Shown here: piece after piece, positions 1,822 through 38,285 of the stretch
How the letters are laid out: the number at the start of each line of letters is the position of its first letter
Position numbering within the stretch: the first letter of the stretch is position 1
IMG/VR virus record: IMGVR_UViG_2541047917_000006
Span: 1-42,169 of that record
Source of the DNA: a virus
Taxonomy: Duplodnaviria > Heunggongvirae > Uroviricota > Caudoviricetes
Strand: one strand, 5' to 3'
DNA: 42,169 nucleotides
Program-made: the position numbers and the translations under genes
The notes under the pieces: generated by a model
Databases searched by the model: none
Told to the model about the DNA's origin: nothing
The model's input: the letters and a program-made list of their open reading frames with translations, nothing else

Positions 1822-2736
1822 TTAGTCACGGTTAACTTCCTGCGGCGGTTCCGGTAGCGGCATCCAGTGGGTTACTCCATGCCATATACCAGTTAAGATT
1901 TCAAACCTTGGCTCTCTGCCTTTCTGTGTCTTGGCATATTCAGTTCTTGTATATACGCATTGTCTAACTGCATATCCATTCCATCCAATAACTGTTTGTC
2001 TGATTTCAGGCATTCGCTCACTACAGCTTATCCAACCATCCGGAGTTACCGGATAGTTGCCAGCCAGTCTACGCAAAACAGCCTTAACAGCCTCAATACG
2101 GTCATCATCGCAATTTTCCAGCGTATCTATGCGATCGAGCATGATGATGGCGTTATCAATATCAGGATTGCCGGTCCACTCATTACCGCGATTGGATTCG
2201 GCAGCCTGGTTGCCGCGTACTGGTTGATTCTCGGCTTTACCCTGTCTGTCGTCGCTGCATGAATGCCCTTCCAGCCAGACCAGTGCTTGTCGCATGAAAT
2301 ACGCAATATGCTTGCCGTGGTAATCGTCTTCATCGATGTGAAAAGCGATACTGCGGATATATTCAATTGCGTTTTCAATGGCCTCCGGCGTTATCGGAGT
2401 TGGTCCATCGAATTCTGGCATGTCAGGACCTTTTCTGATAGCTTTAGCCAGCTCCAGCGGGTCATCGTAAAGCCAGTCGCCAGTTTGTGGGTGATTTGCT
2501 TCTGCAAGCTGCGCAGCCCATTCAAGACCATCTTTTTGACCTTGGAGATAATCAAGCGGCAACTCTTCATGATTACTTGCAGGTTCGGCACTATCAGCTT
2601 CGCGCCGCTTCTGTAGCTCTGCTGCCATTGCTCTCACGACTTCAACTGGTGCCCTTGCAGCAAACTCTATGTTGGTGATTAGCTCATTAAGATATTGCTC
2701 GCCTGGATACTGTTTCTTATCGGTTATAGTGGTCAT
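1822..2736 (-). CDS. DUF551-domain protein (EaA-like), 304 aa
   Basis: Start reassigned to MTTITDKK, preceded by AAAGGAGAG. C-terminal WISCSERMPE...EILTGIWHGVTHWMPLPEPP resembles the DUF551 domain common in lambdoid ea regions. Confidence 0.7.
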   Translation of the reverse strand: MTTITDKKQYPGEQYLNELITNIEFAARAPVEVVRAMAAELQKRREADSAEPASNHEELPLDYLQGQKDGLEWAAQLAEANHPQTGDWLYDDPLELAKAIRKGPDMPEFDGPTPITPEAIENAIEYIRSIAFHIDEDDYHGKHIAYFMRQALVWLEGHSCSDDRQGKAENQPVRGNQAAESNRGNEWTGNPDIDNAIIMLDRIDTLENCDDDRIEAVKAVLRRLAGNYPVTPDGWISCSERMPEIRQTVIGWNGYAVRQCVYTRTEYAKTQKGREPRFEILTGIWHGVTHWMPLPEPPQEVNRD

Positions 2737-2737
2737 A

Positions 2738-3187
2738 TCACTCTCCTTTTCCCTGAAGCATAGCGGCACGGCAGGCGTTACATATTTCGGCAGCAATATC
2801 GCGCTCGCTATCGGTTAATTTGTACGTGGAAACATAGCCAGAGAGCATTTCTACGTTTTCCGGAGTTGCTTCTTCCGGCACTACCGGCGCTGGCGGGGCG
2901 ATGCGTCCAAGCAACTTATTTACCTCTTTCGCCATCGCGTCATATTTATCTAAATGGCGATTAGCTTCTAAGCAGACTCGGCGCATCTGATCTGAGTTAA
3001 CTCGTTTAACTGGATCTGCTTCCAGCGATGCCAGCGCAATCCGTGCCAGTTTTAGATCTCGTGCAACCATCTCAATAACAACTTTGCAGTCCGCACCTTC
3101 TTTGCTAACACGTCCTTTCAAGTTTTCCAGATAACTAACGCTTTCGCGTGCATGGGAGATTAACTGTTCTTTGGTAAAGGTGGTCAT
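2738..3187 (-). CDS. Hypothetical protein, 149 aa
   Basis: ORF tightly packed between neighbours; stop abuts the start of the downstream gene. Confidence 0.6.
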   Translation of the reverse strand: MTTFTKEQLISHARESVSYLENLKGRVSKEGADCKVVIEMVARDLKLARIALASLEADPVKRVNSDQMRRVCLEANRHLDKYDAMAKEVNKLLGRIAPPAPVVPEEATPENVEMLSGYVSTYKLTDSERDIAAEICNACRAAMLQGKGE

Positions 3188-3372
3188 TAGGCAGCTCTCT
3201 CAATAACAAGCAATTCGTCGTAGTCATAATCAGTTTCGGAACCATCCGTACCGAACAGAGTCACTTTGTCATTTTCCATCCAAAAAGATTTAACCGCACA
3301 TTGTTGACCTTTAGATGTTATGAGCACATCACCAGGGATTACGTCTTCAGCGCGAACCTCTAGTGTTCTCAT
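3187..3372 (-). CDS. Hypothetical small protein, 61 aa
   Basis: ORF overlapping both neighbours by 1-4 nt, consistent with translational coupling. Confidence 0.5.
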   Translation of the reverse strand: MRTLEVRAEDVIPGDVLITSKGQQCAVKSFWMENDKVTLFGTDGSETDYDYDELLVIERAA

Positions 3373-3899
3373 CGTGCTGCCCCCTCTTTGGTGAAAATGC
3401 CTGCTGCAATGCTGTTTATGATGCTGTCAGTGCATGGAGTAGAAAGCTGGGCATCTCCAGCAATTTTCATGACCTCAACATCCGCATATCGAATACCGAG
3501 GTGTATCAGACCGGCTATACCTGACTTAAGTCGAACATTTTCCATAAACAGATCTTTTTCCCGCTGTTTAGCGGCTTCCAACTCCATCGACAATTTTTCC
3601 AACTGCTCTTTATGCTTCTTGTATTCCTGATACGCGTGCCAAGACTGACCTTTGCGCACACTATCAGTGATATCAGCAACCTGCTCCGGTGTTAGCGTGG
3701 TCAGTGGCTGTGCTGGAAAAATCATCACTTTCCCGGCATCCCAATCAAAACCCGCCTGAATTGACTGAACCTCAACTGATGGTGTTGAACCGATGCGACC
3801 AGGCGAATGAACAACGATCGTTACATCCATATCGCGACGATGGCTGTGGTTGTTGGACAAAATACGATTCACCAACTCAGAAAATTTGGAAAATTTCAT
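3369..3899 (-). CDS. Hypothetical protein, 176 aa
   Basis: Start reassigned to internal [10 protein letters not shown], whose ATG overlaps the upstream stop (ATGA); coiled-coil middle section. Confidence 0.6.
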
Positions 3900-4219
3900 G
3901 CTGATCCCTCTTTCTCTCCCCGGATAATTCTGTTGCACACATCCACACACTCGTCGCAGATGAAAACGGCGTCCCCAGCAATTAACTTTTTGACGGCGTA
4001 CTGGGATTTGTTGCAGAAGCTGCAACAAAGTGTTCGCCTGACTGATAAGGATGGAGCGCCAGATGTCAGCCGCTCCATATCGTTCTTGCGACGCAATATC
4101 ACACGGCTGAACTCAACCAGTTTCTCCGGGGATATCTCCTCCTCCGTAGCAAGCGCCTCTAATCGTTCGAGTATGTGGAAGGCTTTTTTCTGGGTAATTG
4201 CAGAATGCGATGTGGTCAT
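3896..4219 (-). CDS. ClpX-type C4 zinc-finger protein, 107 aa
   Basis: Start reassigned to MTTSHS, preceded by AAAGGAGAG. C-terminus [36 protein letters not shown] closely resembles the E. coli ClpX N-terminal zinc-binding domain (CSFCGKSQ...KLIAG...YICDECVDLCNDII). Confidence 0.75.
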
Positions 4220-4220
4220 C

Positions 4221-4709
4221 TCACTCTCCTTTGATGCGAATGCCAGCGGCGCGGGAATCATTCCATCGCTTTACTTCTTCACGAATTACGTCAATGCATT
4301 CTTTCGAATCCATTAGGTAATCTTCATCAAAAAGACGTTCCTGTTCGTTTTCTATCGCAACAATGATTGCTTCAACTAACTTTTGTGCCTGAGAATCACT
4401 TTCTAACTCTGCTATGCGCTTACTTCCATCCGAGATAACGCCCTCGTAATACTCACGCTGCTCGTTGAGTTTTGATTTTGCCAACTCCAGTTGTTTTGTT
4501 AGTTCCGCAATACGGCAAACATCGTTGATACGCGTTTCCTCTAATGCGTTGATCTCATCCAACAATGCCAGCGCGATATCTGGCGAAAAGTGCTTCATAA
4601 AATCGTTAAGCGCATTAATTCGCTGATCGAAAGGCATTACAGGTGCTTCACCAGCAATTTTTGTTTTTTCAGCGATTTCACGAAGCTTTTGATAATCAAT
4701 CTTGCTCAC
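4221..4709 (-). CDS. Hypothetical coiled-coil protein, 162 aa
   Basis: GTG start (VSKIDYQKL) six nt after AAGGAGG; the GTG overlaps the upstream TGA stop. Confidence 0.6.
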
Positions 4710-5251
4710 TGGCTGCCTCCTTTGCGAATCTGTTCCGCCCATTCTTCAAGGGATTTCTCCGCATATTCACCAGACAGGCCATCAATCGGATGCGCTTCAT
4801 TAACCAACTCTTCTTTCGCTGACAAAATCATGAGTGTAACGTCGAAAACTTCACGCAAAGGCTTATTGATAAATCCGTGATTGAACGCAGCAGCAAGACG
4901 GCTTGCGGTGTAGTTAATCCCCTCGTTGCGTGCCTCCGCACGTATTTCAGCCAGGAAAGCGTCGGTGGCTGGCATATTTCCTGTTGCCTTCATTGCCTCC
5001 AAAATAACCAGAACGCCATCTCGCCCAACTACCTCAGCGATAACCTCGGTGTTGTCGCCAACAACATCGCAGAATGCCTGAACTGCCTTACGAGCCAGCG
5101 CACTCTCCGCCGCCAGCGCCGCGCACTTGGCCTCCGCTTCAGCAAATTTACGCACCAGATATTCAGCGTTTGTTTCGTTAACCTTTAAATCTCGGGGGAT
5201 GCATTTCCCTTTCAGAAATCCATCCATCTCAATTAGTGACATTTGTTTCAT
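4706..5251 (-). CDS. Hypothetical protein, 181 aa (possibly Ea22-like)
   Basis: Start reassigned to [15 protein letters not shown]-overlapped with the upstream stop; the Ea22-like label is from memory only. Confidence 0.55.
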
Positions 5252-32454: not shown

Positions 32455-34562
32455 GTTTACCCGAAGGATTTGTTCTCGATAATCAGCCTGATAACTCACA
32501 GCTTCCTGATGGTTTTGTGCTTGATTCCCAACCAGAGCAGCAGCAATCACCTTTGGTTTCACCAGAGGAAAACTCCAGACAGGAAAATGTTGTTAATAAT
32601 GCTAACGGCTTCGACCGTTTTATGTATGGCGTTCTCAGTGGATTGATGGATGTTGGTAAAGGTGTTGGTCTATTTCAGGATATGACACCAGAAGAGCAAG
32701 CCGCAATTCAGTCTCTACAGCAGAAGTTAGCGGCAAAACCATCAACCGCACAAGATGTTGGTGAGTTCGTTGGACAAGCAGCACCATTTGTTAGTGGTGG
32801 TGGGATTATTTCTCAGGTTCCGAAAGGGGCGGCAAGGCTGGCTGCCGCCGCAGGGCTTGGTGCTGGAGAAGGGGCTATTGTAGCCAATGGAACAAATAGC
32901 GATGTTGCTTCTGGAGCTGCTATTGGCGCTGTGGCTGGCCCTGTAGCAGAGATTGTTGGTCCAGCGCTTGGGAAGATTGCAGGAAAAATTAAAAATAGTG
33001 CCGGAGATATTTATCGCTCATCCGTAGGGATGGGTAGTAAATCATCTAAAGCAACGTTAAAGAAAGCTGCTGGCGCAATGGACAATAAATTTATCGGCGG
33101 GCAACGAGCTATTCAAGATTTCGCCGATGAAGTTAATCCTGATTTTAACGCGATAAATGCTATTCGTGAGCTAGAACTGGAAAATTATGCCACTCCAGGC
33201 ATGATCTCTAATAATCCTGCTGTCAGGGCTCTTGATAATGCAGTGGCAAGTCTCCCTGGAACAGAGATTAGTGAGGCGCATAAGCGTTTTATTACTGAAT
33301 TAGGAAGAAAAGCTGATGAAATGATAACTTCATTTGGGGGAAGCCTTGATAAGCAACTGGTTTCTGACAGGCTTGCAGATAATTTTGATAAAACCATTTC
33401 ATCATTACAAAATCAGTCAGATAACATCTACAACAAAATTGCCGAAAAGGTTCCTGTAAGAGACCGGATTGAGGCAACTAATACATTGAATTTTTTAGAG
33501 GATTTTGCTGATGATATAGGTGGAATTGATGAATTATCTCCAATAATGAAGCGGACATTGAACCGACTTGATCCAAACACCTTGCCAACGTATGGGCGTT
33601 TAGATCTCGCTAGAAAGCAGGTTGGACAAGCTATTGGCAAAGGCTCTGGTCCATTCAAGGATGAAGAAACAGGTGTTCTTAAAAAGTTATATGCAGCCAT
33701 AACAGATGACCAACAGGCTGTCGCAGAAAAATATGGCGCAGGGGAATTATGGACGCTTGGTAAGGAGTTGGTAAAAAAACGAAAATCCATTGAAGATGAT
33801 GCTGTAACCGTCTTGGGTAGAAAACTTCAGCAATCAGCAATTCCAAAAGTTGAAAGTGCTGTTGTTAATATGGCAAAAGGAAACGGTGGCGACTTTAGGC
33901 AATTAATGAAGTCGATTCCAAAGGATATGCGGCAGGAAGTTGCGCTCACCTCAATGAATAAAGCATTTACCAGCTATGCCAAATCACCTGGTCAGCAATT
34001 AGGAGTTGATGGATTTGTAAAATGGTATAACGGAATGTCACGCAATGGGGCCAATATGAAGGCTCTCCGTGATGCTATTGGCACAGATGCATCAAAGCGC
34101 CTTGATACGATTTATCAAGCAGCTAAGGCTATGAATAGACTCAATACTGGTAAGCAGTATGCTAGTAGTCTTGTGGATCAGCAAGTTAATAACTTTCTGA
34201 AAGAAAAGGGTAGTCTCGCAAAAATTTATGGAATAGCCTCAAAAGCTGCTGCGGCGGAAGGTATTACAAGCTTATCTGGTCTTCCTGGTGTAGGTGCAAC
34301 AGGGGTGATAACGTCAGCATTGATGTCAGGGAAAACAAGCAGGATAAAGGCTGCTGATGCTCTACTGTCTTCTCCTGAGTTTAAATCAATGCTATTTCGC
34401 CTGCAAAACGCACCAGTAGACAGAGCAGAAGTGAGACGCGTAATAGAAAGGAAACTGATGCAATCTGGGGCATTTAAGAGATGGGAGAAAACCTTATCAA
34501 CAGATGAAGCAAAAACCATTGCCCGCACGGGGATTATTACATGGCTCGCTAGTGACAGTTAG
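32439..34562 (+). CDS. Ejection protein (P22 gp16-like), 707 aa
   Basis: Position and size; last gene of the ejection-protein block. Confidence 0.75.
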
Positions 34563-34786
34563 TCAACTTTGGTTATTTTGCCTTCTTTTTCTTGATGAAC
34601 TTTGCATCCATCGTCTTTTGATAGCCAAACTAAAAACTTTAAAACCTTAAACACAAGTACGGCTACTGCAATGAAAGCACCAATTGCAATTATTGCAAGC
34701 GAAATTATTTGCATTGGTGCTTTTAATGCAGGGAAAATAGTGTAAATGATCGCGAAAACAGTAATTATGAGGAACCATCGCTTCAC
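34559..34786 (-). CDS. Small two-helix membrane protein, 75 aa, low-GC moron
   Basis: GTG start five nt after AAGGAGG; strongly hydrophobic with AT-rich codons; convergent with and overlapping the gp16 stop. Confidence 0.6.
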   Translation of the reverse strand: MKRWFLIITVFAIIYTIFPALKAPMQIISLAIIAIGAFIAVAVLVFKVLKFLVWLSKDDGCKVHQEKEGKITKVD

Positions 34787-35160
34787 ACCAACCTCCTTAG
34801 TTTTGAGCAGGATACCAGATGATACTGTATTGGTGGAGTGGTGTGTGAAAACGTGTCAACGACAAACCATCCACAACTTGGACGAATGATTTAGCAAAAA
34901 GTGCTATTTTTGGTGTTTAGTGTCATAGAAAAGTGAATAGCTCACTTTTCAACATTGCATGAAACTTGCAGGAAATGTGACATTACCTTATAGGTAACTT
35001 CGGCGAAAATGCAGTAAATGTGAAACGTAATGGTTTAAACATGTCGCTAAAGTGGTTGTAAGTTAGCCTCCGAAGGATTGCTGATAGCTTTGTTATAGTA
35101 TTAAATGACATTTGACATAGTTGGATACTTAGCTGTGGCTATCAAGATGGAGGTGTGTTC

Positions 35161-35604
35161 ATGCTTACTTGTTTTGATGTCGCCGACTACTTCCTGTCGC
35201 GGTGTGACGAGGATAGCGGTGACACAATCTCTAATTTAAAATTACAAAAGCTTGTTTACTATGCTCAGGGTTTTTCATTGGCGTTGCTTGGCGAGCCTCT
35301 TTTTCAGAATAAGATGGAAGCTTGGATGCATGGCCCTGTTGTCCCTGAGCTTTATCGCCGTTATAAACAATATGGTAATGGCGCTATCCCTTCTCCAGAG
35401 TCTTTTGATGCTGAAAAATTCAGCGAAGAACAGTTAGAGCTATTAGAAGAAGTCTGGGATGTTTTTGGGCAATTTTCTGCCTGGAAACTGAGGAACATGA
35501 CACACGAAGAGTCACCATGGAGATCAAACTATATTGAGGGTGTTGGTGGTTCTGAAATTAGCTCTAAGGAGATGGCAGAGTACTTTGCAACTCGGATTAA
35601 CTAA
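35161..35604 (+). CDS. Panacea-domain (DUF4065) protein, PanA/SocA-like antitoxin candidate
   Basis: ATG after GGAGGTG; CFDVADYFL...ISNLKLQKLVYYAQGFSLALLGEPLF...EAWMHGPVVPELYRRYK fits the DUF4065 consensus as I recall it. Confidence 0.7.
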   Translation: MLTCFDVADYFLSRCDEDSGDTISNLKLQKLVYYAQGFSLALLGEPLFQNKMEAWMHGPVVPELYRRYKQYGNGAIPSPESFDAEKFSEEQLELLEEVWDVFGQFSAWKLRNMTHEESPWRSNYIEGVGGSEISSKEMAEYFATRIN

Positions 35605-35608
35605 CGAG

Positions 35609-36028
35609 ATGGCAAGAAAATCTAAAAGGATTATCCCCCCTGCTGAATCTACAGGTAAGTTAAAGTTAGGGCCGCAGTCAGGGGGGAATTCAGATCAAAA
35701 GAAACCGAAATTTTCATTCTGTTACATCCAAAGCTCTCACTGCATAACGAAATGCCAAAAAGATGAGAAAGCTGGCTTAGCTGATAAATTATACAGATTA
35801 AGTCAACTAACATGGGCAGAGATTAAGCAGCAAGGTAGGCATAAGCTTGGATTTGAGAAGATTGCAAGGGGTGCGATTAAAGCAGGTATCCCCAGTCATA
35901 TAACGGAAGACGTAGATCATTTCTTGGCTTTTAGATTTGATGATTTGAAAGCCATGGTTGGTTATCGTCTTGGATCGACATTTTTTGTTATATGGCTTGA
36001 TAGAGAGTTCAACCTATACAAGCACTAA
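35609..36028 (+). CDS. Unrecognised 139-aa partner of the Panacea-domain gene (toxin candidate)
   Basis: Start MARKSKR five nt after the upstream stop; Lys-rich N-terminus with C-x5-C-x3-C; beta-rich C-terminus ...GSTFFVIWLDREFNLYKH; followed by a strong terminator. Confidence 0.6.
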   Translation: MARKSKRIIPPAESTGKLKLGPQSGGNSDQKKPKFSFCYIQSSHCITKCQKDEKAGLADKLYRLSQLTWAEIKQQGRHKLGFEKIARGAIKAGIPSHITEDVDHFLAFRFDDLKAMVGYRLGSTFFVIWLDREFNLYKH

Positions 36029-36031
36029 TAA

Positions 36032-36057
36032 AACCCACCGTCAGGTGGGTTTTTTAT
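36032..36057. terminator. Bidirectional rho-independent terminator between convergent operons
   Basis: AACCCACC-GTCA-GGTGGGTT hairpin flanked by an A-run on the left and a T-run on the right. Confidence 0.75.
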
Positions 36058-36080
36058 AAGGAGTAATCATGATTTACCCA

Positions 36081-36617
36081 TCAAACAACCCACCAGTTTG
36101 CCTGATTGGATGCCAGCCTTGCAGTTTTTATGGAATTAATTATGCCATGCTCAAGAGCCTTGTTAGCATCCAAAATGGTCGAGTCTGCTATCAGGGATGC
36201 CCACCTAATATGGGTTCCGATGTCGATATTGAACGTCTCAACGAAGCGATCAAGATCGTTATCGAGGCATTTCCCGTACTCTCTCAATCTGGCATGGTCG
36301 GCGGCTGGGGTGGCAAAGCCCCATAATAGAGGATGTAACAGGAATCTTGATAATGGGTTTGCGAAACGTTCTGAGCCAGCCAGGAAAACGATATTAGCTA
36401 TGGATTCAACATTGCTTATGTTGTGAGTTCTAACGGTAACAGGGAGTGACTTAAGAAAGTTATACGCAGTAAAGCCAGCGGCAGTTTCCCCTCCCTGACT
36501 TGATATATGGATATTTAATTCAGTTGCGCCCTGAGATAATGCGGTGAGACAGTGGTTCTGAAGTTGCCCAACAGTGGCAGTGTTAACGGGGCATAAGAAA
36601 TGAATTGTGTGCAGCAT
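36081..36617 (-). CDS. ClpP-fold serine protease-like protein, 178 aa
   Basis: ELNIHISSQGGETAAGFTAYNFLKSLPVTVRTHNISNVESIANIVFLAGSERFANPLSRFLLHPL aligns by eye with E. coli ClpP ([67 protein letters not shown]), including the Ser and His positions; start ATG overlaps the Mnt-like stop (TAATG). Confidence 0.65.
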   Translation of the reverse strand: MLHTIHFLCPVNTATVGQLQNHCLTALSQGATELNIHISSQGGETAAGFTAYNFLKSLPVTVRTHNISNVESIANIVFLAGSERFANPLSRFLLHPLLWGFATPAADHARLREYGKCLDNDLDRFVETFNIDIGTHIRWASLIADSTILDANKALEHGIINSIKTARLASNQANWWVV

Positions 36618-36865
36618 TATTTTTCATCCTTACCATACATGGTCTTTAGCGTCTCAAGCAGCGCCTCTTTGAATTTGTCAGCTTCTTGCTGAGCAAATGA
36701 CTCAACTGACTTTGGCGACCTATCTTCATCAATCGCGGCTTGCAAAATCATGACGATCTCGGAGTTAACAGAGCGACCATTTTTTGATGCTCTGACAGAA
36801 AGAGCCTCGCGTAAAGATTCAGGGATTCTTACCGTAGTTGGAGAAATTGACACACCCTTTGCCAT
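36617..36865 (-). CDS. mnt: Mnt-like ribbon-helix-helix repressor, 82 aa
   Basis: NGRSVNSEI motif and overall similarity to P22 Mnt (...ANGRSMNSEL...); same size as P22 Mnt; divergent from the arc-ant operon. Confidence 0.8.
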   Translation of the reverse strand: MAKGVSISPTTVRIPESLREALSVRASKNGRSVNSEIVMILQAAIDEDRSPKSVESFAQQEADKFKEALLETLKTMYGKDEK

Positions 36866-36979
36866 ATCACACCTTTGGTATTCAATTTGATATCAAAGTG
36901 TATGCAAAAAAATTTTGACTAGATATACTCACTTTGCTATCTTTTGTATTCGGAAAGAGTTGTTTGTGGGGAGGGTAAC

Positions 36980-37132
36980 ATGGAGAAAGAAATAAGTAAG
37001 ATTTTGGTAAGGATGCCGCAGTCGTTAAAGGATGCTATCGGTAGCAGGGCAAAGGAAGAGTGCAGGTCGTTTAACTCAGAGGTTATCAAGCGCCTGATAG
37101 ACAGCCTGAAGAGAGAGGGGGTAGTGGTATGA
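36980..37132 (+). CDS. arc: Arc-like ribbon-helix-helix repressor, 50 aa
   Basis: Start reassigned to MEKEISKILVRMPQSLKDAIGSRAKEECRSFNSEV, parallels P22 Arc (FNLRWPREVLDLVRKVAEENGRSVNSEI). Confidence 0.75.
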   Translation: MEKEISKILVRMPQSLKDAIGSRAKEECRSFNSEVIKRLIDSLKREGVVV

Positions 37133-37320
37133 AAAACCGCAGATGTTGTTTTTGTGGGTGTAGTAAAGAAACGACTGGAAGGGGCTTTGTTGTGTCAAAA
37201 AATACCGAAGAAGCAATTTGTGACTCATGCGTTACAGATATTGTTATTTTCATGCATGGCGAGAAGGGGTTAGATGAAAAGCTAGAGAGTATTCCAGTTG
37301 AAGGCGCTGATAAAAGTTGA
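37129..37320 (+). CDS. Small Cys-rich protein with ClpX-zinc-finger-like motif, 63 aa
   Basis: ATG overlaps the arc stop (ATGA) after [17 protein letters not shown]...AICDSCV resembles the ClpX zinc-binding domain C-x2-C...C-x2-C pattern. Confidence 0.6.
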
Positions 37321-37382
37321 AGCCCCAACTGCTGGAACAGTCAGGGCTTCGGTTGTCGGTAAATCCGTGGAGAAAAACCAAC

Positions 37383-38285
37383 ATGAATAGTATAGCAATT
37401 TTAGAAGCAGTGAACACCTCTTACGTGCCTTTCAATGGTCAGCATATTTTAACCGCTGTGGCTGCCGGAGTGACTTATGTAGCGATGCGTCAAATTGTGG
37501 AAAACATTGGTATAGACTGGACTGGTCAATCTGTTAAGTTGCGTAAAATGAAGGACAAATTCAACTGTAGAGATATCTCTATGGTTGCCGCTGATGGCAA
37601 GTTACGTAAGCTTTTATGCATACCGCTGAAGAAACTCAATGGATGGCTGTTCAGCATCAACCCTGAGAAAGTTCGAGCTGACATCCGCGATAAACTGATT
37701 CAGTACCAGGAAGAATGCTTTACTGTGCTGCATGACTACTGGACGAAGGGAAAGGCAGAAAATGCACGTAAGAAAACATCTGTTGATGACAGGACTCCGC
37801 TTCGTGATGCTGTAAATATGCTGGTCAGCAAAAAGCATCTAATGTACCCAGAAGCTTATGCAATGATTCATCAGCGTTTCAATGTGGAAAGTATTGAAGA
37901 GCTTGATGCATCTCAGATACCGCAAGCAGTAGAGTACATCCACAGGGTAGTGCTTGAAGGTGAGTTCATCGGCAAACAAGAGAAGAAAGCAAACGAGCTT
38001 TCTGCAAAAGAAGCAAACAGCCTTGTATGGTTATGGGATTATGCCAACCGTTCACAGGCATTATTCCGCGAACTGTATCCGGCGCTGAAACAAATTCAAT
38101 CGAACTATTCCGGCAGATGCTACGACTACGGTCATGAATTCTCGTATGTTATCGGAATGGCGAGAGACGTTTTAATAAACCACACACGAGATGTTGATAT
38201 TAATGAGCCAGACGGACCAACGAATCTTTCCGCATGGATGAGACTTAAGAATAAAGAATTACCTCCTTCAGTACATAACTACTGA
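37383..38285 (+). CDS. ant: Antirepressor Ant, 300 aa
   Basis: Start reassigned to [30 protein letters not shown]; size and position match P22 Ant downstream of arc. Confidence 0.8.

Follow-up and report, generated by a model that had tools for sequence, protein, structure and literature searches.

A truncated ClpP isoform gene overlapping mnt in a P22-type immI locus and its possible action through the host ClpP barrel

The window analysed here is the whole 42,169-nucleotide (nt) Caudoviricetes record IMGVR_UViG_2541047917_000006 of IMG/VR, a P22-like E. coli prophage, and the element in question is a minus-strand gene in the leftward arm of its P22-type immI locus, which overlaps the repressor gene mnt and encodes a 178-residue ClpP-like protein. 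We find that this clpP-like open reading frame (ORF) is a real gene under purifying selection, that its product has the fold and residue pattern of a family of short, N-terminally truncated ClpPs in which the catalytic Ser and His are retained and the Asp is lost, and that the gene forms an operon with mnt into which it has been placed as a mobile cassette. We propose that the protein is an accessory phage-borne ClpP isoform acting through mixed complexes with host ClpP, an account to which, identity claims included, we give an even chance of being correct. Identity and anatomy are established; exclusion, control of lysogeny and host fitness are candidate roles for the benefit to the lysogen.

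The 178-residue protein matches the Pfam CLP_protease profile (PF00574) at E 4.3e-12, its 46.7 bits exceeding the gathering score of 20.2, over profile positions 37-180 of 182 and with the N-terminal part missing, and it scores 22-41 bits against the NCBIfam ClpP equivalog models, all far below their cut-offs of 228-361. Since the family threshold is passed and the equivalog cut-offs are missed, the protein is a member of the ClpP family and not an orthologue of housekeeping ClpP. An AlphaFold2 monomer model calculated from a 30-sequence alignment (predicted local distance difference test, pLDDT, 92.7; predicted template modelling score, pTM, 0.88) predicts the ClpP alpha/beta head domain plus handle, and Foldseek returned 1,467 PDB matches for it at E<=0.001, the best 50 of which are all ClpP chains with template modelling (TM) scores of 0.75-0.94. 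The closest solved relative is PpClpP1 (PDB 9UXT_A), with a TM score of 0.94 and a root-mean-square deviation of 1.5 Å in the structural comparison, and 38% identity over residues 3-175 by phmmer (E 4e-35); canonical ClpPs reach TM scores of 0.75-0.83. The fold comparison thus agrees with the original prediction, in which the core of the protein had been aligned by eye with the ClpP catalytic region, Ser and His included. The accompanying statement that the protein could not be placed no longer holds, as RefSeq already names it 'ATP-dependent Clp protease proteolytic subunit' and its 38%-identical relative PpClpP1 has been solved and assayed. Furthermore, a profile search of a 1.84-billion-protein representative library gave 65 clusters (50% identity) at E<=1e-30, and most of the best 150 matches listed are about 180-195 residues long with the match beginning near residue 3-15, so that the short ClpPs make up a sizeable and mostly unstudied family.

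Individual residues were mapped on an alignment with the ClpP encoded in the E. coli K-12 genome record, numbered as the mature protein, and were tabulated across 182 relatives, 64 of the enteric type and 118 of the Pseudomonas type. Ser72 and His95, equivalent to Ser97 and His122, are invariant in all 182. The equivalent of the catalytic Asp171 is Ser146, and Asp is never found there in the relatives: the position holds Ala (36), Ser (21) or Gly (4) in nearly all of the enteric type and Pro in 106 of the 118 Pseudomonas-type sequences. Of the Ser-His-Asp triad proposed earlier as a check, Ser and His are therefore in place, whereas Asp has been replaced family-wide. The family carries a THNxSNxES signature around the catalytic serine, to which the enteric clade adds a conserved C-terminal WWV. 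The axial loops that gate the barrel are absent, the protein starting where the E. coli ClpP strand 'RVIFL' starts. In addition, we compared the residues that, in the ClpP-ADEP and ClpXP structures, line the IGF/LGF-loop pocket in which ClpX and ClpA dock on E. coli ClpP (Y60, Y62, F82, I90, L114, F49, L48, F112 and M92). Among these, Y60 is changed to N35, Y62 to H37, F82 to S57, I90 to H65, L114 to N87 and F49 to T25, and the positions kept are L48 as L, F112 as F and M92 as I. The protein lacks three defining features of housekeeping ClpP, namely the Asp, the axial loops and the docking pocket, and should not dock an unfoldase on its own.

These losses acquire a biochemical frame from PpClpP1 of Pseudomonas plecoglossicida, a 183-residue N-truncated ClpP with a 'Ser-His-Pro' triad, whose Ser and His are essential and whose third residue is dispensable (PLoS Pathog 2026, PMC12900304). 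PpClpP1 assembles into a homotetradecamer with a 42.7 Å pore, has a peptidase activity ~13-fold below that of canonical ClpP2 and does not bind ClpX, and it enters a stable ClpP1P2 hetero-14-mer whose activity exceeds that of both homo-oligomers and which ClpX drives by way of the ClpP2 ring (PMC12900304). The loss of the pocket in the 178-residue protein agrees with the ClpX pull-down result for PpClpP1. The two proteins are alike in length (178 versus 183 residues), in N-terminal truncation, in the retention of Ser and His and in a non-Asp third position, and in a rough neighbour-joining tree without bootstrap they fall in one clade apart from canonical ClpP; within that tree the phage-borne enteric clade is sister to the chromosomal ones, and all stand well apart from canonical ClpP. 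They differ at the third position, which is Ser here (Ala, Ser or Gly in nearly all of the enteric type) and Pro in PpClpP1, and at signature positions, the enteric type having SSxGG instead of ATxGG, N69 instead of T, T147 instead of R, and the conserved WWV. They also differ in setting, as genes of the PpClpP1 type sit on chromosomes next to KGG and DUF6555 genes, whereas the present gene is phage-borne and coupled to a repressor.

The coding strand can be assigned with confidence. The clpP-like ORF is uninterrupted in all relatives, which range in identity from 99% to about 42%, and the ratio of nonsynonymous to synonymous substitution rates (dN/dS) in the sense frame is 0.05-0.08 where synonymous sites are unsaturated. 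On the opposite strand, the plus-strand ORF at 36069-36326, which the original prediction had named as possibly the real gene, has a full-length match to phrog_7758 (E 1e-61); its frame, however, evolves with dN/dS >1 and is interrupted in homologues, the longest open runs being 30-38 codons (L016 and L009). Selection on the sense frame, its intactness and the broken antisense frame together indicate that the minus-strand gene is the real one, and the antisense ORF is ruled out. The ORF occupies the reverse frame in register with the sense codons, a frame that remains open as long as the sense gene uses no TTA, CTA or TCA, and phrog_7758 itself appears to have been built from mis-called ORFs.

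A different identity, that of a prohead (head-maturation) protease, is suggested by existing annotation: the best PHROG matches of the protein are families named 'head maturation protease' (phrog_94, E 5e-21), and the gene is annotated in this way in phage phiv205-1 (GenBank record MN340231). Prohead proteases (NF045542, PHROG 94) do share the ClpP fold with the present protein. Nevertheless, it scores 49.7 bits against a cut-off of 120 for NCBIfam Clp_rel_HeadMat (NF045542), and its gene lies on the other strand and in another module, inside immI and outside the head cluster, with no scaffold or capsid context. P22-type heads are known to mature without a protease. We reject this candidate, and the chance that either a prohead protease or the antisense ORF is the true content of the locus is in our view negligible.

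Upstream of the clpP-like gene, the 82-residue ribbon-helix-helix protein matches Pfam Arc/RHH PF03869 (E 3e-10) and aligns over its whole length with P22 Mnt (BLASTP, 36% identity over 74 residues, E 6e-14); its PGAP label is 'Arc family DNA-binding protein'. The two genes meet on the minus strand in TAATG, where base 36617 is common to the mnt TAA and the clpP-like ATG, and an AAGGA Shine-Dalgarno sequence, read from the sequence, lies 9 nt 5' of that ATG. At the other end of the operon stands a hairpin, AAAACCCACC-GTCA-GGTGGGTTTTTT, flanked by A and T runs, which folds at -15.8 kcal/mol on the plus strand and -19.1 kcal/mol on the minus strand. It lies 24 nt past the clpP-like stop and 4 nt past the stop of the convergent plus-strand gene, and this nearness to the stops of both convergent units means that it can act as a bidirectional terminator. 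The 36033-36056 hairpin, confirmed by folding, was not picked up in a simple consensus terminator scan, probably owing to a stem lengthened by pairing between the A and T runs. The hairpin is kept at the cassette edge in phage Emek, phage PhiR12_1 and the prophage of E. coli NCCP12480. The guanine-cytosine content is mildly low, at 0.41-0.44 between 33 and 38 kilobases (kb) against mostly 0.46-0.51 among the virion genes at 12-33 kb. The anatomy set out in the original prediction therefore stands in each of its parts: a Mnt-like gene, in fact a true Mnt orthologue, that is fused by a stop/start overlap to the 178-residue ORF in the leftward arm of a P22-type immI, a pair that ends at a bidirectional terminator, and a locus poorer in GC than the structural genes.

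An allele of at least 99% identity is carried by 128 of 5,426 complete E. coli genomes (~2.4%), including the type strain (ATCC 11775 / DSM 30083), and among the matches listed that span the whole gene the E. coli copies adjoin an 'Arc family' (Mnt) gene. Six sequenced phages carry the clpP-like gene as well. One of them, the lambda-like siphovirus PhiR12_1, whose record gives E. coli K-12 MG1655 as host, holds the full mnt-clpP/arc-ant cassette between tail genes L and K with the coupling kept (ant, arc, mnt and clpP-like gene at 2525-4537 of locus L014), and its presence there indicates that the immI module moves as a unit between phage morphotypes. Within the module, the clpP-like gene is itself a discrete insertion or deletion: the NCCP12480 prophage, 97-99.5% identical in the flanks, lacks exactly 36056-36637, its matches to the window covering only 34784-36055 and 36638-37136, whereas positions 36034-36709 of the window recur in PhiR12_1 with 98% identity.

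In IMG/VR, relatives are present on 112 contigs, and our neighbourhood counts rest on 80 of these loci. All 32 alleles of at least 80% identity have Mnt directly upstream. An identical AAATAATG junction is found in 30 loci, across 14 distinct Mnt sequences with about six types of DNA-binding N-terminus, one of which is close to that of P22 Mnt. The 80%-identity allele L064 retains the junction beside a Mnt that is 58% identical to P22 Mnt, and next after its clpP-like gene comes one for a small membrane protein, a homologue of Emek orf77; in phage Emek itself, orf77 and orf69 occupy the post-mnt slot in place of ClpP. The cargo of Emek and L064 and the kept junction identify the post-mnt position as a cargo slot in which the coupling of the clpP-like cargo to mnt is conserved. 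The other cargo (3230-3669 of the Emek locus L002; 4232-4837 of L064) comprises a 73-77-residue membrane protein (phrog_32536), a 69-residue protein and a 125-residue membrane protein; in L064 these genes follow the clpP-like gene on the same strand, possibly in one operon, and their products are possible exclusion proteins. The arrangement recalls the prophage-expressed genes sieA and ORF59 beside mnt in P22, which likewise run leftward in a variable cargo slot between the DNA-transfer gene and the mnt/arc/ant switch. Genes of the sieA type encode membrane exclusion proteins and have their own expression signals, whereas the slot here contains the gene of a cytoplasmic protease subunit, whose translation is physically tied to that of mnt.

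The partnership with Mnt ends with the close alleles. At 75% identity and below, alleles stand alone, most of them converging on the adjacent genes or oriented opposite to them, and a phmmer search with Mnt and Arc against all ORFs of more than 100 loci found no Mnt- or Arc-like neighbour for any of them. They occupy the lysis-terminase gap (Klebsiella, E. coli, Leclercia-like, Rahnella and Enterobacter), tail-gene gaps (Pantoea and Chromobacterium), the early region (Proteus) and, in one case, a prophage end, and one Klebsiella allele is preceded by a 10-of-12 promoter-like site and followed, 22 nt past its stop, by a terminator-like hairpin. The survey of prophage neighbourhoods thus upholds the coupling to Mnt for alleles of at least 80% identity and not for relatives at 75% or below. 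That the latter are lone accessory genes without Mnt argues against a function tied specifically to Ant or Arc, and the earlier suggestion of a regulator of Ant/Arc stability finds no direct support.

The same survey bears on whether Mnt and the ClpP-like protein constitute a toxin-antitoxin-like or self-regulating pair, with Mnt as dedicated partner or substrate of the protease. The tight stop/start overlap, the conservation of the junction across many Mnt alleles and the fact that the cassette always includes the codons of the Mnt C-terminal tail could be read in this way. However, P22, Emek and NCCP12480 have Mnt but no such ClpP gene, the relatives of 75% identity or less have no adjacent Mnt- or Arc-like gene in >40 viral loci plus the genome loci, and Mnt is orthologous, over its full length, to a repressor whose target is known. 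We therefore consider such a pair highly improbable and, together with the head protease and the antisense gene, effectively excluded; the stricter notion of an obligate two-gene module of ribbon-helix-helix protein and ClpP, with adjacency only at alleles of at least 80% identity, is largely refuted and was dropped.

Outside prophages, the Pseudomonas-type genes are chromosomal and lie beside genes for a KGG stress protein and DUF6555, and the Massilia genes are also chromosomal. In the Pseudomonas chromosomes L027-L030 the short clpP is consistently flanked by the KGG-repeat stress-protein and DUF6555 genes, which hints at a role in stress response that is not discussed in PMC12900304. Among the prophage relatives, that of E. 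coli GN06156 (L032) combines a divergent short clpP in the lysis-terminase gap with a Q-holin slot occupied by a TIR-TM defence gene, PADLOC E 2e-57 (1358-2173 and 3823-5010 of the locus), and a 182-residue gene (phrog_5483, with a weak Abi_2 match) lies just upstream of its clpP-like gene in the same direction.

In the account we favour, a truncated ClpP gene of the PpClpP1 type would have been inserted as a discrete cassette between mnt and the terminator, so placing it on the mnt transcript and coupling its translation to that of mnt. A common transcript and coupled translation would mean that the ClpP-like protein is made whenever Mnt is made, which by analogy with P22 would be in established lysogens. 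The protein would most likely assemble, like PpClpP1, into heptameric rings of the ClpP type that have a wide open pore and are weak in intrinsic peptidase activity, would recruit no unfoldase by itself, and would most probably take effect by stacking on, or mixing with, the host ClpP ring, the outcome being altered ClpXP and ClpAP proteolysis in the lysogen. Here we infer the oligomeric state, the lack of ClpX binding and the formation of hetero-complexes from the biochemistry of the homologue. No gene partner recurs across the prophage slots of the relatives compared, a pattern that, over five kinds of slot, is consistent with a protein whose partner is a universal host component.

Precedents may be found in P. 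aeruginosa ClpP2, Listeria ClpP1 and Mycobacterium ClpP1P2, extra isoforms that, by analogy, resemble the present protein in weak or absent activity alone, impaired unfoldase docking and pairing with a canonical ring; Listeria ClpP1/2 is among the Foldseek structural matches. Extra ClpP isoforms active only in mixed barrels are known from few bacteria and in each case from cellular genes. These second paralogues of Pseudomonas, Listeria and Mycobacterium are cellular, of near-normal length and in most cases endowed with a complete or Asn-variant triad, whereas the present gene is a mobile prophage cassette whose product is shorter and has no acidic or amide third residue. The comparison of PpClpP1 with PaClpP2 has been drawn before (PMC12900304).

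Several points weigh against this proposal. Expression in the lysogen is taken from the logic of P22 Pmnt, and a consensus promoter scan upstream of mnt gave nothing convincing as Pmnt. What is proposed on ring assembly and on mixing with E. coli ClpP is carried over from a homologue in another genus with 38% identity, and the signature positions at which the enteric type departs from PpClpP1 (SS for AT before GG, N69, T147 and WWV) could go with a different biochemistry. The Pseudomonas homologues, moreover, are chromosomal genes by KGG stress-protein genes and not phage genes, so their physiology may not transfer.

The same residue losses could serve an opposite end, namely a dominant-negative 'poison' subunit that caps or mixes with host ClpP rings, lowers ClpXP and ClpAP output and thereby stabilises Clp substrates useful to the prophage. 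Such a subunit would suit the family-wide loss of the catalytic Asp, axial loops and docking pocket and the properties of PpClpP1, ~13-fold less active than canonical ClpP and unable to bind ClpX, and the free ClpX zinc-finger-like domains of the prophage, described below, could act in the same way. Yet the mixed complex of the sole homologue tested is more active than either homo-oligomer, and the strict invariance of Ser72 and His95 under strong purifying selection argues that the catalytic residues are needed, against a purely inert decoy. On this evidence we find a poison subunit distinctly unlikely.

Finally, the protein could act without host ClpP, as a stand-alone exclusion or abortive-infection effector: a gate-less, unfoldase-independent peptidase that would degrade unstructured proteins of a superinfecting phage, such as ejection proteins or replication initiators, or kill the cell on infection. 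The wide-open pore of PpClpP1 would suit such an activity, and so would the position of the gene, which by analogy with P22 lies in the lysogen-expressed arm and which adjoins a Panacea-type toxin-antitoxin pair. Relatives sit in classical accessory or defence slots, as in the prophage with the TIR-TM gene in its Q-holin slot, and in Emek and L064 the post-mnt slot contains, in addition, genes for small membrane proteins, a frequent product of exclusion genes. Against this, the low intrinsic activity of PpClpP1, the absence of any recurrent sensor or partner gene and the non-defence contexts of the chromosomal orthologues in Pseudomonas and Massilia all tell. A scan against PADLOC-DB 2.0, which covered the ClpP-like protein, both repressors (Mnt and Arc), the zinc-finger ORF and a number of neighbouring genes from related loci, gave no match at E<=1 for the ClpP-like protein or Mnt; the only matches were a weak NsnC-like one, to the partner of the Panacea gene, and the TIR-TM gene of a related prophage. 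We judge the effector role put forward in the original prediction unlikely, and favour an isoform working through the host barrel.

Part of this picture was known before, namely the short-ClpP family with the solved PpClpP1 and the generic RefSeq name, whereas we found no prior description of a phage-borne clade wired to Mnt. Literature searches on prophage or immI ClpP, PhiR12 and phiv205-1 gave no description of an mnt-clpP module, so that the arrangement, as was first remarked from the sequence, matches no phage module described in the literature searched; a paper on a 'clpP homologue' in a Staphylococcus prophage and one on the LfgB prophage protease proved unrelated to it. A distinct short-ClpP clade is thus phage cargo across the accessory slots of prophages of several genera, and in E. 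coli it is tied to the lysogeny repressor. ClpP is a central bacterial protease and a drug target. Should the protein join the host barrel, it would represent a new prophage route to altered host proteolysis, with possible consequences for stress responses, for the turnover of toxin-antitoxin systems and for what becomes of superinfecting phages. The proposal is readily testable, given that the gene is present in the type strain and in PhiR12_1 and that a near-identical prophage without the cassette offers a comparison.

The window also encodes two ORFs that resemble the zinc-finger domain of ClpX. The allele between arc and ant matches Pfam zf-C4_ClpX weakly (E 0.2) and the ClpX N-terminus by BLASTP at E 0.002, and its counterpart at the same position in NCCP12480 (L015) scores 37.7 bits against a gathering score of 27 and bears the PGAP name 'ClpX C4-type zinc finger protein'. 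The ORF in the early-left region reaches 57.1 bits against the same gathering score of 27, is 68% identical to residues 11-51 of E. coli K-12 ClpX (E 7e-20) and is possibly a decoy, captured by the phage, for substrates or adaptors of ClpX. In a Proteus prophage a similar ORF (3421-3768 of L016) is found at a distance of 2.2 kb from the short clpP. It is conceivable that temperate Enterobacterales phages bring along a ClpP subunit by which the host barrel is infiltrated in lysogens, joined in this prophage by two free copies of the ClpX zinc finger, and that together these would reprogram the substrate choice and turnover of ClpXP; if so, such a phage could exclude rivals whose replication or antirepressor proteins are Clp substrates, or could lock in lysogeny. 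We assign this extension a low probability because the zinc-finger ORFs occur independently of the ClpP gene: in PhiR12_1 and most viral loci ClpP is present without a detectable zinc-finger ORF, and the idea that the two travel together was rejected, L015 having the zinc-finger ORF without ClpP.

Table 1. Features of the mnt-clpP locus and related elements, in window coordinates
Feature	Position	Strand	Description
121-residue ORF	3896-4261	-	early-left region; C-terminal half corresponds to ClpX N-terminal zinc-finger domain; phrog_6797
Intrinsic-terminator hairpin	36033-36056	both	bidirectional; common to mnt-clpP operon and convergent plus-strand pair
Insertion/deletion cassette	36056-36637		582 base pairs; clpP-like gene plus final 6-7 mnt codons
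clpP-like gene	36081-36617	-	178-residue N-terminally truncated ClpP isoform; Ser72 and His95, Ser146 at Asp position
Translational-coupling junction	36615-36632	-	TAAGGA Shine-Dalgarno, 9-nt spacer, TAATG; read from sequence
mnt	36617-36865	-	82-residue ribbon-helix-helix repressor; full-length homologue of P22 Mnt
Divergent control region	36866-36979		Pant-like promoter and candidate operator palindrome
arc	36980-37132	+	50-residue Arc repressor; Pfam Arc E 5e-12; equivalent coding sequence in L001 called by PGAP
ClpX zinc-finger-like ORF	37129-37320	+	63 residues; between arc and ant; ATGA overlap with arc stop; CxxC...CxxC pattern
sar antisense RNA	37315-37382	-	Rfam RF00262; 91.8 bits against gathering score 43; E 2e-19
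ant	37383-38285	+	300-residue antirepressor; P22_AR_N E 2e-42, P22_AR_C E 4e-29; phrog_245 'anti-repressor Ant'

The surroundings of the operon (Table 1) are those of a P22-type immI, with divergent mnt and arc-ant units, the sar antisense RNA and the gene order of P22, and the immI assignment of the original prediction is confirmed by Arc, the P22_AR domains of Ant and the RF00262 match. In the divergent control region a consensus promoter scan gave a Pant-like promoter on the plus strand (TTGACT-17-TATCTT, 36915-36943), and an imperfect palindrome of 18+18 nt at 36874-36909 could be an operator. The sar RNA overlaps the 3' end of the zinc-finger-like ORF and terminates directly upstream of the ant start codon.

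On the far side of the terminator, a Panacea/SocA-like antitoxin gene (35155-35604, plus strand, Pfam E 2e-24) is followed by a gene for a 139-residue partner (35609-36028, plus strand) with a weak PADLOC NsnC match (6e-6) and a phrog_8366 match. The two are probably a PanA-type toxin-antitoxin pair, and they converge on the terminator used by the mnt-clpP operon. Just past the DNA-transfer gene, at the position of sieA in P22, lies a gene for a 75-residue predicted membrane protein (34559-34786, minus strand, phrog_7294). On the other side of immI, the space between ant and the tailspike gene holds a 402-residue insertion-sequence transposase (38379-39587, plus strand), mutator/IS256-like judging from its sequence; the tailspike gene itself (712 residues, 39709-41847) is intact, and related prophages (L001) have IS66 inside the tailspike gene instead.

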